Of a DNA stretch of 64,000 nt, positions 19,964 through 23,696 are shown one piece after another (the stretch's first letter is position 1; each line of letters starts with the position of its first letter). Source of the stretch: Candidatus Doudnabacteria bacterium (lineage in GTDB: Bacteria > Patescibacteriota > Doudnabacteria > UBA920); the NCBI GenBank assembly GCA_031291995.1, contig JARLHZ010000004.1, positions 5,272 through 69,271 on the forward strand. Reading direction: 5' to 3'. Both the position numbers and the translations under genes were made by a program. The notes under the pieces are model-generated. The model saw only the letters and a program-made list of their open reading frames with translations, was not told where the DNA came from and searched no databases.

Positions 19964-21520
19964 ATGGAAAAGGATTCGCAAATATTGAATAAAAATTTTG
20001 CAGCCACAACTCAGATTGCCGGCCGCAGTTTGGATTTGGCTGAGATAGTTTTTATTACCGACACTAATTTTAAGCTTCTTAAACCCGAATGGCTGAGTGA
20101 TGACGATTTAATGCTGAAATTGAAGGCATATATTTTTGAAATTATTGAGACAAATGAAGATTTATTAGCTATTGATTGTTTTGACCACCTGCATAATCTG
20201 CTTGCCCAGAATTCGCGTTTGGCTAAGGAACGCCCAGATATATTTCTAGAATATTTAAGGATGCTAGCCTTACTTAAGGCGACTTTTTTAATGAATCTTC
20301 CGGAGCAGGACGTTATGACTTTTTTTAGAGAAAATTTGCTATTTTGTCTGGATGTGCAAGATTTTGATTTAGGCGAGAAAATTTTTCGTTTGCTATTTTT
20401 GTACCACAAAGATCCCAAAGTCTTTGAAGATGAAAGAAAGCAAATACAACAAGCAATAGAGGACAACGGAGAATTTTTAGGTGAAAATGGTATTACGCTC
20501 CTAAACAAAAATGAAGAGCAATATGCGACTGTTGAGAACTGGCTTGAAGATTATAACGAATTTTCAGTCGGATTTACCGTTAAAAACGGAAGAGGGGCTC
20601 AAACCAGAGCTAGTGGAGGTTTGGGAGGAAGCTTGGAGAGGGTTTCTTATATGCAAAAAAGTTTAAACGTTCGGGGATTGAATAAGGACGAAAAGGTTAT
20701 TCTGTTTAAGCTTTTGGAACTTTATGATTGGCTGAAGAGTTTAAAGCCTACGACTTTATTTTATGAGCCATTTTTTTCTAGTTACATAGAAACGCAAAAT
20801 CAGGCCTTGAAATTATTTAATGAAGACGGCGAAAATACTTCTTTCGTTTCAAACCAGAGCGCATTGGGTAAACCAGTTGAAATATCATCAGATTTATCCA
20901 AATCCGTTCCGCCTGCAGTCCCTGAAAGCAAGTCTGCAAAAGTTATGCTGCAGATGAGCCAGGTTAATGTTGAGGAGGTTTTGAGGAAGCAGATGCAGAG
21001 TAGCGGGGCGGGGTTGAGGATGGGAGGAGGGCGGGAAATTACAAATAACAAATTACAAATTCCAAATGGGGAACAGGGAGCGACGGGGCAAATTGCAAAT
21101 GAAAAATTAAAAATTCCAAATGGGGAACAGGGGAAAGGTGCAAATGACGGACAGGGAGTAGTGAATATCGAACAGGCAACAGGGAACAGAGGGCAGGCGG
21201 ATAATAAAAAGACCGCCCCTTTCGGGGCGGCCTTAGGGTTTCAGCAAGTGCCTGAAAGCCCGGCTTTGACATCTGAAAAAAGTATAACAGAATCTCAGAG
21301 TTTGTCAAGTGGTGGACCCAAGGGGAATCGAACCCCTGAAACCCGGATGTCAAAGCCAGGCTCGGCACCCGCCTGGGCCCACTCGGATGAATTATATCAT
21401 AGTTCTGCGGAAAATATGATTGAAATGACGAATATGACTAACACAAAAGCCGGCGTGCCCAGTAAAGCGCAGGAAATTGACAGGAAGTTGGAAGATTTAG
21501 AGAAGCGCGTTAAAATTTAG
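19964..21520 (+). CDS. hypothetical protein. The globular N-terminal ~330 aa look coding. The C-terminal ~180 codons are repeat-derived and low-complexity, so the 3' extent is uncertain
   Basis: No family recognised. The tail contains in-frame copies of the caaattacaaat word repeat, a terminator-like hairpin at 21213-21230 and a tRNA-like remnant. Confidence 0.4.
   Translation: MEKDSQILNKNFAATTQIAGRSLDLAEIVFITDTNFKLLKPEWLSDDDLMLKLKAYIFEIIETNEDLLAIDCFDHLHNLLAQNSRLAKERPDIFLEYLRMLALLKATFLMNLPEQDVMTFFRENLLFCLDVQDFDLGEKIFRLLFLYHKDPKVFEDERKQIQQAIEDNGEFLGENGITLLNKNEEQYATVENWLEDYNEFSVGFTVKNGRGAQTRASGGLGGSLERVSYMQKSLNVRGLNKDEKVILFKLLELYDWLKSLKPTTLFYEPFFSSYIETQNQALKLFNEDGENTSFVSNQSALGKPVEISSDLSKSVPPAVPESKSAKVMLQMSQVNVEEVLRKQMQSSGAGLRMGGGREITNNKLQIPNGEQGATGQIANEKLKIPNGEQGKGANDGQGVVNIEQATGNRGQADNKKTAPFGAALGFQQVPESPALTSEKSITESQSLSSGGPKGNRTPETRMSKPGSAPAWAHSDELYHSSAENMIEMTNMTNTKAGVPSKAQEIDRKLEDLEKRVKI
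21310..21380 (-). pseudogene. tRNA-like remnant (acceptor + T-arm + CCA intact, D/anticodon region too short)
   Basis: The reverse complement reads GGGCCCAGG...CAGGGGTTCGATTCCCCTTGGGTCCACCA. This gives a 7-bp acceptor stem, a canonical TTCGATT T-loop and an encoded CCA. Only 36 nt lie between the acceptor and the T-stem, where at least 39 are needed. Confidence 0.4.
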
Positions 21521-21582
21521 GGTAATGAGTATGCTATATTATAGATAACTAACCTGAGCAATATAGGCCATGAAAATTATTA

Positions 21583-22008
21583 ATGAAGATTTTTCAGTCT
21601 AAAATTAACAAACTGGCGGGAACCGATTATAGAGAAGTCTATTCCAGGGCGAGGACTATATTCCTGGGTATAAAAAAGAGAAGCAAGCGCAAACCCTACG
21701 TCAGGTCGGCCTATTTTGGAAACAATAAAATTTTTCTCGACTATTTTTGGGAACACCTGCACCAAAAGAACCAGGCAGACAGGTTAAGAAGGTTGAAATT
21801 TTACGCCTGTGCCTTGGAGTTAATACAAAAATCAAAGTTATCGCCGACCATCAAAGAGCATACAAACAAACCGAAACATTCAATGCATCGTTTTTATGGA
21901 AAAGCACCCAATAATGAAATGTTTGTCGTTCAAATTATTGAAAATTTAAAGACCGACAGTAAATATTTTTTATCAGTTTTCCCGTATGAATCTAGTGGCG
22001 ACAAATAA
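21583..22008 (+). CDS. hypothetical basic protein
   Basis: 141 aa, Lys/Arg-rich. No family recognised. Confidence 0.35.
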   Translation: MKIFQSKINKLAGTDYREVYSRARTIFLGIKKRSKRKPYVRSAYFGNNKIFLDYFWEHLHQKNQADRLRRLKFYACALELIQKSKLSPTIKEHTNKPKHSMHRFYGKAPNNEMFVVQIIENLKTDSKYFLSVFPYESSGDK

Positions 22009-22025
22009 AAAAAGAGCCTCCGCAA

Positions 22026-22100
22026 GTGTGGTATATAAACCACGGGGCCGAGACTCTATTATTACAGATCTTCCGCCAAGGTGTGGTATATAAACCACGG
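22026..22100. repeat. two direct copies of a 20-bp hairpin motif
   Basis: gtgtggtatataaaccacgg at 22026-22045 and 22081-22100. Each is a GTGGT..ACCAC hairpin. Confidence 0.6.
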
Positions 22101-22172
22101 CCGAAGACCTATGAGATAATTATAACAAATATATTTGGCCTGTCAATATTCAAAATTAGCCTATAAATAAGC

Positions 22173-23696
22173 ATGGATCCGCAAAGAATAAAAAAAATCG
22201 AAGACCTGGTTATTCAGTCAAAAATCCTCAGCCGGCAGGAGCGGGGGGAATGGCTGGCGCTTTTGGATATAATGAACGACAAACAGCTGGCGGAGCTTGA
22301 GGATATTTTGATGGCGGGGAAGAGGCAGGAATCATTAGCGGGGAGCGGACAGCGGGGAGCGGACAGCGGACAGGGAATAGGGGGGCAAATTACAAATAAC
22401 AAATTCCAAATTTCAAATGGGGGACAGGGGCAAATTCCAAATGAAAAATTATCCGCGAAAGGCGGATCCGCCTCCGGCGGAAAAATTACAAAACCGGAGC
22501 AGATTAAGGAGATTGCGAGCGGTAAAGCGCAGATGATAAACTCGCAGACTTTGGCGACGACTCCGGATATGCTTAGGGAAAAATTCGCGGCCGCGCCGAT
22601 GGGCATACCAAAGCTGAATCATATAATGAATTTGCCGAGGATGGGGAGGATTGAACGAGGGACTCCGGAGCAAACAGCAAACAGCAAACAGCAAACATTT
22701 GTCAGCAGGCAGCAGACAGCAGACAGTGGAGACAAGAGTGGGTTTGCGGGCAGACTTAAGGCGGTAATGGCGGAAAAGGAGCTTCCGGGAGCGGTGGCGG
22801 AATTGGAATTGCCGGGAAGAAGCCGTCCCAAGCTTGAACCCGCGATACATTTAAATTATGGCGCTTTGCCGCCGGTACCGAGGCCGAAGGTAGGAGACAG
22901 CAATCAGCAGACAGCAGTCAACAGACAGCAGTCAGCAGACAGCAAGCAGCGGACAGCGGATAGCGGACAGCGAATAGAGGGAGGCGGGAAGATGGGGGAG
23001 AAAGTTAATGGGCCGGTGGCGGCTGCAGGGCCGGAAGCGGGTGTCGCGCCAAAAAAACCCGAACTTGCGAACGCGGAGCCGGGATTGCCAAAAATTCAGG
23101 CCGTAGTAAATGAAATATTATCGAACACTTTAAAGCCGGGCTATGCCGACAAAACGCCGCCAATAAAATCGGATCCGACAGAAGCCTCTTCACTCGCGCA
23201 AGTTTTGGCTAAAAAAACCACCGCTGAGGCCGGATTAACAAGCGGGCTCAGTAAATTGCCGGATAATGTTTTTATGGTGCCGACCGCGTCCCTCAAAATC
23301 AAAACACCGGAAGCTGTGGCGGTTCCAGGACCGTTAGTTCAATCGGAAACCGCGGTCTTAACGGATGAGGAGCCGCAAACCAAAAAATCGTCCGCGCCCC
23401 AGGCAAAGTTGTCGAGTTTGGAAGATTTGAGCAAAATTGACACGCAAAATCTGGAAGGAGGGTGGGATTTGCTAGCCAAACAAATCAGCAACCTTATCCG
23501 AAAGTACGATTACCACCAGGTGTCCATGAATTTGGAAAAAAGTCCGCTTTATATAAGTTACCTGCAAACGGGGAGCAGCGCGCTGCAGCAGCAAACCAGC
23601 CTGGAACGCCTAAACGACCCGCCCCAGCCGGGGATATTGGACAGAGCTCGGTTTGAGCAGACCGCGGACTTGCTGAGAGCGATTCAATCGGGATAG
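22173..23696 (+). CDS. low-complexity hypothetical protein with a helical N-terminus and a Q/S/A/G/P-rich body. Coding status is uncertain
   Basis: Open frame of 507 codons. The DNA contains microsatellite-like runs (aaacagcaaacagcaaacagc, cagacagcagacag) and an in-frame copy of the caaattacaaataacaaattccaaatttcaaat word repeat at 22385-22500. Confidence 0.35.
   Translation: MDPQRIKKIEDLVIQSKILSRQERGEWLALLDIMNDKQLAELEDILMAGKRQESLAGSGQRGADSGQGIGGQITNNKFQISNGGQGQIPNEKLSAKGGSASGGKITKPEQIKEIASGKAQMINSQTLATTPDMLREKFAAAPMGIPKLNHIMNLPRMGRIERGTPEQTANSKQQTFVSRQQTADSGDKSGFAGRLKAVMAEKELPGAVAELELPGRSRPKLEPAIHLNYGALPPVPRPKVGDSNQQTAVNRQQSADSKQRTADSGQRIEGGGKMGEKVNGPVAAAGPEAGVAPKKPELANAEPGLPKIQAVVNEILSNTLKPGYADKTPPIKSDPTEASSLAQVLAKKTTAEAGLTSGLSKLPDNVFMVPTASLKIKTPEAVAVPGPLVQSETAVLTDEEPQTKKSSAPQAKLSSLEDLSKIDTQNLEGGWDLLAKQISNLIRKYDYHQVSMNLEKSPLYISYLQTGSSALQQQTSLERLNDPPQPGILDRARFEQTADLLRAIQSG

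Follow-up and report, generated by a model that had tools for sequence, protein, structure and literature searches.

Heptamer repeat blocks and an antisense small-RNA cassette lying in frame within two genes of a type IV secretion-like operon in Candidatus Doudnabacteria

The locus

Two large open reading frames (ORFs) of a Candidatus Doudnabacteria genome carry arrays of the seven-nucleotide word CAAATNN inside their coding sequence, in a 64-kb stretch of contig JARLHZ010000004.1 (the whole stretch analysed, here called the window). The two genes, ORF1 and ORF2, belong to a plus-strand operon of the Gram-positive type IV secretion system (T4SS) type, which encodes a large membrane protein, ORF1, a 141-aa protein, ORF2, a PrgI-family protein, a VirB4/TraG-like ATPase and a protein with a lysozyme-like domain; among these genes lie a four-helix-bundle (23S_rRNA_IVP) gene and a GxxExxY/PDDEXK_3 gene. 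The order ORF1, ORF2, 23S_rRNA_IVP-family gene, PrgI and VirB4 is kept at L001 and L004, the loci of two ORF1 homologues. Between the two repeat sites, on the opposite strand of ORF1, lies a small-RNA cassette of ~200 nt that the first-pass annotation of this DNA had missed. The preferred explanation, which we regard as probable when taken as a whole, is that both ORFs are real genes that carry heptamer blocks and, in ORF1, the RNA cassette in frame in their linkers, and that these are read through. The features of the two genes are the following.

19964 to 21520, plus strand: ORF1, 518 aa, gene of the T4SS-like operon, with a helical N-terminal domain, a long linker and a short C-terminal helix
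21036 to 21078, plus strand: block A, a CAAATNN composite that ends in GGGGAACAGGG and reads ITNNKLQIPNGEQG
21085 to 21132, plus strand: block B, a CAAATNN composite that reads GQIANEKLKIPNGEQG
21141 to 21195, plus strand: GGACAGG / AACAGGN, G-rich heptamers that separate the CAAAT blocks from the RNA cassette (period 7 reported for 21171-21189, the remainder by reading the sequence)
21201 to 21401, minus strand: small-RNA cassette, antisense in ORF1, with the plus-strand reading DNKKTAPFGAALGF...SSGGPKGNRTPETRMSKPGSAPAWAHSDELYH; its R1 covariance model scores 218 bits over 21201-21383
21476 to 21517, plus strand: conserved C-terminal tail of ORF1, IDRKLEDLEKRVKI, with the highest codon score of the gene
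22173 to 23696, plus strand: ORF2, 507 aa, NCBI MDR3642093.1, with folded helical N- and C-terminal domains and a disordered middle of ~350 aa
22337 to 22373, plus strand: AGCGGAC/AGCGGGG heptamer array in ORF2, reads GSGQRGADSGQG
22386 to 22451, plus strand: block C, a CAAATNN composite, lineage-specific within ORF2, reads QITNNKFQISNGGQGQIPNEKL; homologous to blocks A and B of ORF1
22669 to 22726, plus strand: AGCAAAC/AGCAGAC heptamer array in ORF2, reads EQTANSKQQTFVSRQQTADS; a variable region with a low predicted local distance difference test (pLDDT) score
22895 to 22977, plus strand: AGACAGC/AGCGGAC heptamer array in ORF2, reads DSNQQTAVNRQQSADSKQRTADSGQR; an insertion relative to most homologues

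Heptamer repeats within ORF1 and ORF2

An in-frame word repeat had been reported at 21036-21130 and 22385-22500, and both the sequence and its translations are present at these positions. In ORF1 the stretch is translated as ...REITNNKLQIPNGEQGATGQIANEKLKIPNGEQG... (in a longer extract, ...GGGREITNNKLQIPNGEQGATGQIANEKLKIPNGEQGKG...) and in ORF2 as ...GGQITNNKFQISNGGQGQIPNEKL... (...GIGGQITNNKFQISNGGQGQIPNEKLSAKGG...). The repeat itself therefore stands, although its unit is not the 12-mer word first proposed: it is the heptamer CAAATNN, whose arrays span 21036-21132 in ORF1, giving ITNNKLQIPNGEQG, and 22386-22451 in ORF2, giving ITNNKFQISNGGQG. Tandem Repeats Finder places period-7 arrays of 4.6-4.7 copies at 21036-21067, 21089-21121 and 22386-22418. 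These arrays are imperfect, each unit being different, and the in-ORF copies have the form of a composite block in which 4-5 CAAATNN units are followed by GGGGRACAGGG (two blocks in ORF1, one in ORF2).

The excess of such repeats is a property of the whole window. With up to two mismatches, the 12-mer CAAATTACAAAT occurs 65 times, against 19.5 +/- 4.7 in shuffled sequence (shuffle maximum 32), and a scan for arrays with periods of 4-12 returned 20 arrays at period 7, 0-5 at every other period and a mean of 0.3 in local shuffles. The flagged arrays consist of head-to-tail 7-nt units in three or more copies, and period 7 exceeds both the other periods and chance, as in the known heptanucleotide-repeat class of bacteria, to which these arrays belong; what is new is the CAAATNN motif and the host, a member of the Candidate Phyla Radiation (CPR).

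The cyanobacterial short tandemly repeated repetitive (STRR) heptanucleotide sequences reportedly go back to Mazel in 1990. Other examples include the TAACTGA repeats (MacGregor 2015, PMC4679880), the GGGAATC repeats (Rehm 2015, PMC4692102) and the long simple-sequence repeats of Mrazek 2007 (as cited in PMC4679880). The present repeats are like them in forming short arrays of 2-6 units, in their period-7 excess, in lying mostly between genes near start or stop codons, in their occasional inverted arrangement and in the occasional in-ORF copies oriented by stop codons (PMC4679880). They differ in that the arrays described here lie deep inside genes and yield long linker peptides, whereas the in-ORF copies of Beggiatoa are found mainly at protein ends. 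Literature searches returned no paper on heptamer repeats in CPR bacteria, the only precedents being those of Beggiatoa, cyanobacteria and Xanthomonas.

Conservation and coding statistics of the two genes

ORF2 is identical to the hypothetical protein MDR3642093.1 of a Candidatus Doudnabacteria metagenome-assembled genome (MAG) and has 15 homologues besides this record. Its conserved blocks comprise ERxEWLALLxxMNDKQLxELE at the N-terminus, LSHIMNLP and FxxKLKxxxAEKELP in the middle, and a C-terminal domain with YGYHEVxFNLEKSPLY...FExxADLL; in homologues from other CPR bacteria they stand in a single frame on both sides of every heptamer array, and the 19 invariant columns of the alignment are spread over both ends. 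The AlphaFold2 model has a pLDDT of ~90 for residues 1-57, ~85 for residues 410-507 and ~40 between them, and every heptamer-coded segment falls in this low-confidence middle. As regards the presence or absence of the repeat in orthologues, a comparison already suggested by the first-pass annotation, the syntenic orthologues (L004:6965-8155 and L001:8251-9219) are without the CAAAT/GGACAG block of ~60 aa and without the block at 22895-22977, and block C is missing from most of the other homologues too. Other ORF2 homologues have heptamer-type peptides of their own at the same linker, for example KIPNSKFQIPN and VTSDKLQVTGDK. Directly after the CAAAT block of ORF2 there is also a GC hairpin (ATCCGC-CTTTC-GCGGAT, 22451-22471) that resembles a terminator when read on the minus strand; downstream of it, no promoter for that strand was found.

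Homologues of ORF1 in the matching operon position are P0002 (51% identity), P0003 and P0004 (34%) and an ORF at L008. Common to them are the N-terminal ~330 aa and the short C-terminal tail, which lies in frame beyond all repeats and recurs in P0002, in P0004, in the L008 ORF and in a 223-aa ORF of L004. Three orthologues have a CAAAT array at the same position of the linker. The AlphaFold2 model of ORF1 (mean pLDDT 40) shows helices over residues 41-287, is unstructured over 347-500 and has a C-terminal helix (501-517) with a pLDDT of ~77. Independent assemblies yield identical proteins; in the databases, ORF1 is represented only by a Logan-derived version of 511 aa.

Codon usage was assessed by a log-odds scan trained on eleven solid genes, in which the annotated frame was compared with the other forward frames in sliding windows. 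The score of the annotated frame is positive and the best of the three across 20984-21250 and 22323-22500, so that it remains the best forward frame through both repeat regions, a check that had likewise been proposed. Over ORF1 as a whole it is the best in nearly all windows and dips to ~0 only over 21284-21403, the position of the tRNA-like domain described below.

Origin of the in-gene repeat blocks

The blocks of the two genes are related beyond their repeat unit. Positions 21036-21078 of ORF1 and 22387-22429 of ORF2 are 93% identical over 43 nt, and 21085-21109 and 22427-22451 are 96% identical over 25 nt, in the same codon phase. Both genes share the order of the variant units together with the non-repeat junctions GGGGRACAGGG and GGGGCAAATTNCAAATGAAAAATTA, and the junction CAAATGGGGRACAGGG is confined to ORF1 and ORF2 and is found at none of 23 other loci. 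Since a shared block of 93-96% identity with non-repeat junctions and a common codon phase points to copying between genes and not to independent slippage, the comparison favours a composite block of ~70 nt that was copied, in this lineage, from one of the two linkers to the other. The array of ORF1 itself is older than this copying, because three orthologues carry an array at the same spot.

Slippage is nonetheless the likely ultimate source of the heptamer arrays, and it may also be asked whether they simply grew in place, as ordinary microsatellite growth by replication slippage in a tolerant linker, with no dispersed element inserted or copied. Heptamer tandem repeats are described as the commonest long simple-sequence repeats in many bacteria (Mrazek 2007, via MacGregor 2015, PMC4679880), for which slippage of the polymerase is a proposed origin (MacGregor 2015, PMC4679880, citing Mrazek 2007; Rehm 2015, PMC4692102). 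ORF2 contains several unrelated heptamer types, and an array at the same site in the ORF1 orthologues suggests vertical descent. Independent slippage would not, however, reproduce a shared unit order with non-repeat junctions at 93-96% identity, nor the fixed order of units in the intergenic copies (CAAATAT-CAAATTA-CAAATTT-CAAATCAA). Growth in place is thus rather unlikely as the full account, but it is partly compatible with the copying of a block, as slippage probably created the arrays originally.

Outside ORF1 and ORF2, the heptamer arrays are mostly intergenic, and their fixed unit order identifies the CAAAT copies as a dispersed repeat family with an internal 7-nt periodicity. In the spacers of the operon, a CAAAT array in plus orientation stands just after the stop codon and one in minus orientation just before the next start codon, and arrays occupy the same operon junctions at L001. 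Five spacers contain inverted pairs that fold into stable hairpins of -25 to -49 kcal/mol (10090-10210, 25900-26040, 27870-28050, 58970-59080 and 60870-60950), as repetitive extragenic palindromic (REP) sequences do. Such pairs might act in a REP-like manner, as intercistronic RNA hairpins for processing, stability or termination. As dispersed short repeats that form RNA hairpins in operon spacers, they are comparable with REP sequences and bacterial interspersed mosaic elements (BIME), enterobacterial repetitive intergenic consensus (ERIC) sequences and Correia-type repeats; they are unlike these in that two opposed heptamer arrays make up each hairpin, whose function here is putative. No GTAG/CGTC tag and no RAYT transposase was seen, though no search was aimed at them. 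Promoters can be present in Correia elements.

Inside genes, only the CAAAT orientation is found. In the reverse orientation (ATTTGTA...), each frame runs into a TAA within three units, and this accounts for the bias; the same argument from stop codons was made for the orientation of TAACTGA repeats by MacGregor (PMC4679880). A unit length that is not a multiple of three, in genes for likely surface or secretion components, could also suggest phase variation, in which the gain or loss of one 7-nt unit would shift the frame and switch T4SS-like components off and on, and heptanucleotide repeats are reported to drive phase variation in Haemophilus (PMC8262952). Against this, the arrays are short (4-5 units) and imperfect, and hence a poor substrate for slippage, the frame is kept in orthologues, and repeated assemblies of related loci are 100% identical with no variation (a comparison with almost no power). 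Such a switch is very improbable here.

The antisense small-RNA cassette

The cassette at 21201-21401 has a fold z-score of -6.0 and is composed, on the minus strand and in the order of transcription, of the following parts.

21391 to 21399, minus strand: P1, extended -10 promoter TGaTATAAT, with its predicted start 3-4 nt before the tRNA-like domain
21310 to 21380, minus strand: RNA1, a tRNA-Ala/tmRNA-like domain of 71 nt with a 7-bp acceptor stem containing G3:U70, a T-arm (AGGGG-TTCGATT-CCCCT) and an encoded CCA
21281 to 21308, minus strand: P2, promoter TTGACA-16 nt-TATACT with TG, directly after the CCA; 11 of 12 in the promoter scan
21206 to 21274, minus strand: RNA2, partner small RNA with its start at ~21274, whose first 16-35 nt are complementary to RNA1
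21209 to 21234, minus strand: intrinsic terminator after RNA2, from the terminator scan

Each of these parts is conserved in close copies of the cassette, of which there are six (that of the window and those at L001, L004, L007, L008 and L009). In P1, ATAAT and the upstream TG are invariant in all six, and the TATAAT hexamer is invariant in the four A3 copies. The -35 element of P2 is invariant in the six copies, and its -10 element is TATACT in five and TATAAT in L007, with a spacer that varies; among the cassette hits from metagenomes, TTGACA was imposed by the search pattern and the -10 hexamer was not. The alignments show the terminator, too, as invariant. The complementarity of RNA2 covers RNA1 from the D region through the equivalent of the anticodon arm. 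The long-range helix that pairs 21346-21361 with 21258-21273 comprises 16 pairs and is 100% paired across the six copies, and in 10 of its pairs both partners have changed; pairing is likewise 100%, with compensatory changes, in the acceptor stem and T-arm. Over the whole cassette, 97% of cells are paired and 19 pairs are double-changed, a level reached in none of 500 shuffles. RNAduplex z-scores for RNA1 with RNA2 range from -4.8 to -8.4 in 9 of the 12 sequence types.

From the perspective of known RNA families, RNA1 resembles the tRNA-like domain of transfer-messenger RNA (tmRNA) but fails the defining tests both for tmRNA and for tRNA. It is without a normal D arm or anticodon loop, and ARAGORN finds it only with relaxed settings, as an irregular cloverleaf with a 3-bp D stem and an irregular anticodon arm; neither default ARAGORN nor Rfam at gathering thresholds calls it, the sole tRNAs of the window being Arg, Ser and Glu. 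It thus departs from RF00005 in its cloverleaf, its D arm, the 7-nt anticodon loop and its detection by standard means. Among the Rfam families, tmRNA matches it best, with 20.6-22.8 bits where the gathering score is 47 (E ~8e-7). With respect to RF00023, RNA1 has the tRNA-like domain with G3:U70, T-arm and CCA, and has neither the mRNA-like domain, the middle 301 positions of the model being skipped, nor a score at threshold; an ARAGORN search for tmRNA gave no match for the cassette. The permissive Rfam matches (tmRNA at 20.6 bits, rli42 at 30 against 80 and permuted tmRNA at 17 against 47) were not accepted as membership; a literature search on rli42 brought nothing of use.

A two-piece tmRNA was reportedly described by Keiler in 2000. 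An mRNA-less mitochondrial tmRNA is known from jakobids (Jacob 2004, as cited in PMC6514570). The cassette is like tmRNA in that RNA1 has an Ala-type acceptor stem with G3:U70, a T-arm and CCA, no anticodon, a helix in place of the anticodon arm and a second RNA with which it pairs. It is unlike tmRNA in having no tag reading frame and no pseudoknots and in an order of pieces that differs from that of known permuted genes. A standard or a permuted two-piece tmRNA was accordingly set aside, for want of a tag reading frame and owing to the wrong order of pieces. An invertible promoter switch, considered because inverted repeats flank P2, is unlikely, as the segment is only ~70 bp long and the pairing co-occurs with conserved tRNA-like helices.

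The tRNA-like stretch could instead have no function as an RNA gene and be a relic of integration (attL/attR of an integrative element in a tRNA-Ala or tmRNA gene). A conjugative element is suggested by the T4SS-like genes, tRNA-Ala genes of related organisms (L022 and L023) agree with the stretch in acceptor stem and T-arm, and there is the weak Rfam match to tmRNA. Such a relic is nevertheless exceedingly improbable: both strands of the acceptor are present and not only the 3' part, the domain comes with an invariant promoter of its own and is followed by a second promoter, a partner RNA and a terminator, the full architecture recurs in ~10 unrelated contexts with compensatory changes, and no full tRNA that would match is present in the window.

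Cassette copies, host genes and dual constraint

All six close copies are situated inside long ORFs, and in all of them the same antisense frame is open, with 2-8 stops in the other two antisense frames. Their hosts represent five gene contexts, namely the ORF1 family, with three species, an operon protein of 223 aa, a surface protein at least 1222 aa long, a protein resembling those of insertion sequences (IS-like) and a family of ~260-aa proteins (P0005), for which, as for ORF1, ORF2 and the 141-aa gene, no Pfam or NCBIfam family was found. In P0005 the cassette forms residues 106-171, an insertion of 64-68 aa flanked in frame by both halves of the conserved protein; it is missing in seven of eight aligned homologues, one of which is 62% identical, and in P0025, the eighth, that site is occupied by an insert of unrelated sequence. 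At L001, L004 and L007 the nucleotide identity of the cassette is 76-83%, whereas the host ORF1 proteins are 34-51% identical.

The indels between copies are of 27 and 12 nt, both multiples of three, and in the antisense frame the third codon positions vary more (0.31) than the first two (0.22 and 0.21; permutation p = 0.014). The open antisense frame, the multiple-of-three indels and the third-position excess together indicate a coding constraint on this frame, and the cassette is therefore under constraint as a reading frame as well as an RNA. Four more sequence types came from the metagenome scan; they keep the whole architecture in quite different sequences. Distant types are intergenic, for instance upstream of gyrA, and their antisense frames are all closed or only briefly open. 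A protein search with the 71-aa cassette peptide returned no usable matches, and a scan of viral contigs for the cassette returned none.

Two further arrangements were observed among the copies. L019, a contig of 1.85 kb, has two copies of the distant type, at 732-916 and 1644-1837. At L004 (4656-6185, the P0002 locus), the ORF1 orthologue is followed by a DUF3800 gene and by the separate 223-aa ORF, which begins with an ORF2-like N-terminal motif, continues with the cassette and ends in an ORF1-like tail, an arrangement suggestive of genes having split or fused around the cassette.

Probable read-through of repeats and cassette

The first-pass annotation had offered, as one of two alternatives, that the ORFs are over-called, the true genes ending before the repeats and the frames through the repeat and RNA-gene DNA being open by chance. 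Several observations fit this: a whole RNA transcription unit, from promoter to terminator, lies antisense within ORF1, the codon score of ORF1 is ~0 over the tRNA-like domain, ORF1 is not in the NCBI protein set, and heptamer arrays elsewhere are mostly intergenic. Yet there is no stop for 163 codons after 21030, the ORF1 tail and the C-terminal domain of ORF2 are conserved in the same frame in several species, conserved parts flank the repeats in one frame, and the annotated frame is the best one through the arrays. The frame of the cassette is moreover open in six of six copies, with multiple-of-three indels and a third-position excess, and the two halves of P0005 flank it in frame. Over-calling, to which we give hardly any weight, is contradicted already by the comparison of orthologues, and we regard it as refuted.

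To the observed anatomy, conservation, in-frame status, presence or absence in orthologues and RNA covariation, the preferred explanation adds that arrays and cassette are most likely translated as linker peptide. Both proteins would consist of folded ends joined by long disordered linkers, in a genome with many short heptamer arrays that include a dispersed CAAATNN block of 4-5 units. Copies of this block would have arrived in the linkers of the two genes or grown there, with movement between the two genes by ectopic recombination or a similar copying process, and only the sense CAAAT orientation and frame-preserving lengths would persist there. Sense orientation and frame-preserving lengths suggest that the arrays are translated as a low-complexity linker peptide, such as ITNNKLQIPNG. 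The linker of ORF1 would additionally host, on the opposite strand, the two-promoter cassette with the tRNA-Ala-like RNA1, the complementary RNA2 and the terminator, and selection keeps the antisense frame of this cassette open, so that the host protein would read through it.

Several points weigh against this explanation. The structure model of ORF1 is poor, with only four sequences in the underlying alignment, and ORF1 has no NCBI protein record, although ORF2 of the same MAG has one (MDR3642093.1), which means that at least one annotation pipeline did not accept it; the codon test, moreover, partly rewards stop-free sequence. All ORF1 orthologues have the CAAAT array at one site, so that the 'insertion' in ORF1 is ancient or maintained, and the array may conceivably serve as a functional peptide or nucleic-acid motif. 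As for the cassette, it is single-copy in the window and rare elsewhere (2 matches in species-representative genomes and 14 metagenome stretches, ~10 of them with the cassette architecture); in this it differs from a high-copy element such as the Rickettsia palindromic elements discussed below. Inspection by eye revealed neither target-site duplications nor terminal repeats.

Long CPR ORFs that cross simple repeats or even an antisense RNA gene can thus be real, and filtering them as artefacts would drop conserved secretion-system components from annotations. If the two genes are indeed read through, heptamer repeats would also be a source of new disordered linker sequence in streamlined genomes.

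Role of the cassette and relation to palindromic elements

Rickettsia palindromic elements (RPEs), reportedly described by Ogata et al. in 2000, are said to be short non-autonomous repeats located in frame inside protein-coding genes. The other alternative of the first-pass annotation was an in-frame insertion of this type, and here behaviour and membership have to be separated. The behaviour is borne out by orthologues without the block and by 93-96% shared sequence in the same phase: the ORF2 block, absent from orthologues, and the cassette, absent from seven of eight P0005 homologues, occupy genes in frame, and the ORF2 block and the cassette (in ORF1 and the P0005 family) add a peptide segment without destroying the host protein. 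Membership is not claimed, the host being a member of Doudnabacteria. The in-ORF CAAAT blocks occur in one orientation only and are not palindromic with a stable hairpin. The cassette does hold a long inverted repeat, and it is the most RPE-like object in the interval. It is unlike RPEs in being a complete antisense transcription unit with a tRNA-like domain, in its low copy number and in its free-standing intergenic relatives, and the host phylum also differs (Doudnabacteria as opposed to Rickettsiales); a relation in sequence is unlikely. No RPE is known to encode a tRNA-like RNA. In-frame colonisation of genes in the manner of RPEs is seen here outside Rickettsia.

As regards function, the preferred reading of the RNA pair is that RNA1 would be tRNA-like and accept alanine, and that the co-encoded RNA2 would mask its 5' half. 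The pair might serve as an antisense regulator of the operon, or as a decoy or toxin-antitoxin-like pair that aids the persistence of the cassette. The cassette could also be a domesticated regulator and not a selfish insertion, convergent antisense transcription from P1 and P2 inside ORF1 tuning the operon and the RNA pair serving the cell in its own right, for instance as an Ala-accepting decoy that RNA2 restrains. This is a serious possibility, although we lean against it. The cassette occupies the same place in ORF1 of three species, in which the proteins are ~34% identical and the cassette DNA 83%; its free-standing relatives adjoin housekeeping genes such as gyrA and dnaE; and the operon contains, 900 nt further downstream, another conserved small-RNA candidate on the minus strand. 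The presence of the cassette in unrelated hosts as well (the P0005 family, the giant surface protein and the IS-like protein) fits mobility better. The question concerns function and is compatible with in-frame reading of the cassette.

More speculatively, the cassette may represent a previously undescribed element, a tRNA-Ala-derived two-RNA module in which RNA1 would probably be charged by alanyl-tRNA synthetase (AlaRS) and a strongly transcribed RNA2 would mask its 5' half. Such a module would be free-standing in several uncultured lineages and, in Doudnabacteria-like CPR bacteria, would reside and probably spread antisense in genes while the host frame stays open, combining RPE-like parasitism with a toxin/antitoxin-like or decoy function; we put this forward as a tentative proposal that may well prove wrong. 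The cassette is in any case a concrete candidate for a new small-RNA family, with a tRNA-Ala/tmRNA-like domain and a dedicated complementary partner RNA, and, with RNA and coding constraints acting on opposite strands, a genuinely unusual embedded element.

Neighbouring features and other repeat families

Two genes of the operon are associated with repeats in another way. The 23S_rRNA_IVP gene (TIGR02436, 23749-24123) is flanked by opposed CAAAT arrays at 23714-23763 and 24144-24174 and is syntenic in L001; the GxxExxY/PDDEXK_3 gene (24783-25181, between operon genes in the region 24668-25209) has weaker flanking CAAAT matches. The repeats on either side of these two genes recall 23S rRNA intervening-sequence cassettes, in which stems flank the intervening-sequence ORFs, with the difference that here the two genes sit between protein genes and not in rRNA.

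On the minus strand at 22005-22146, a promoter of perfect sequence (TTGACA-16-TATAAT with TG) precedes a candidate small RNA of ~105 nt, which a T7 terminator closes. The RNA consists of two similar modules built on the hairpin GTGGTTTATATACCAC, has no Rfam match and is kept in the same spacer of L004 (~6795-6930) and L001 (~8075-8210).

Other heptamer families form opposed intergenic hairpins of -32 to -35 kcal/mol, ATGAATT/AGGAATG with ATTCCTA at 58980-59067 and TTAGGAA with AACTCCT at 60878-60944, which shows that the habit of opposed arrays is not limited to the CAAAT motif. Another in-frame array, CTATTCA in 4.7 copies at 56276-56308, lies inside the ORF at 55880-56728, encodes LFTNHYSLFTIL and apparently replaces a native segment of similar length; by sequence motifs only, this ORF resembles prolipoprotein diacylglyceryl transferase (Lgt). 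Finally, arrays with a 9-nt unit containing TTGACA/TGTCAA occupy 33450-33640, directly upstream of the ORF at 33643-34977 (AAATTGACA in 4.6 copies, then TCCTGTCAA in 7.2 copies), and look like iterons or operators.

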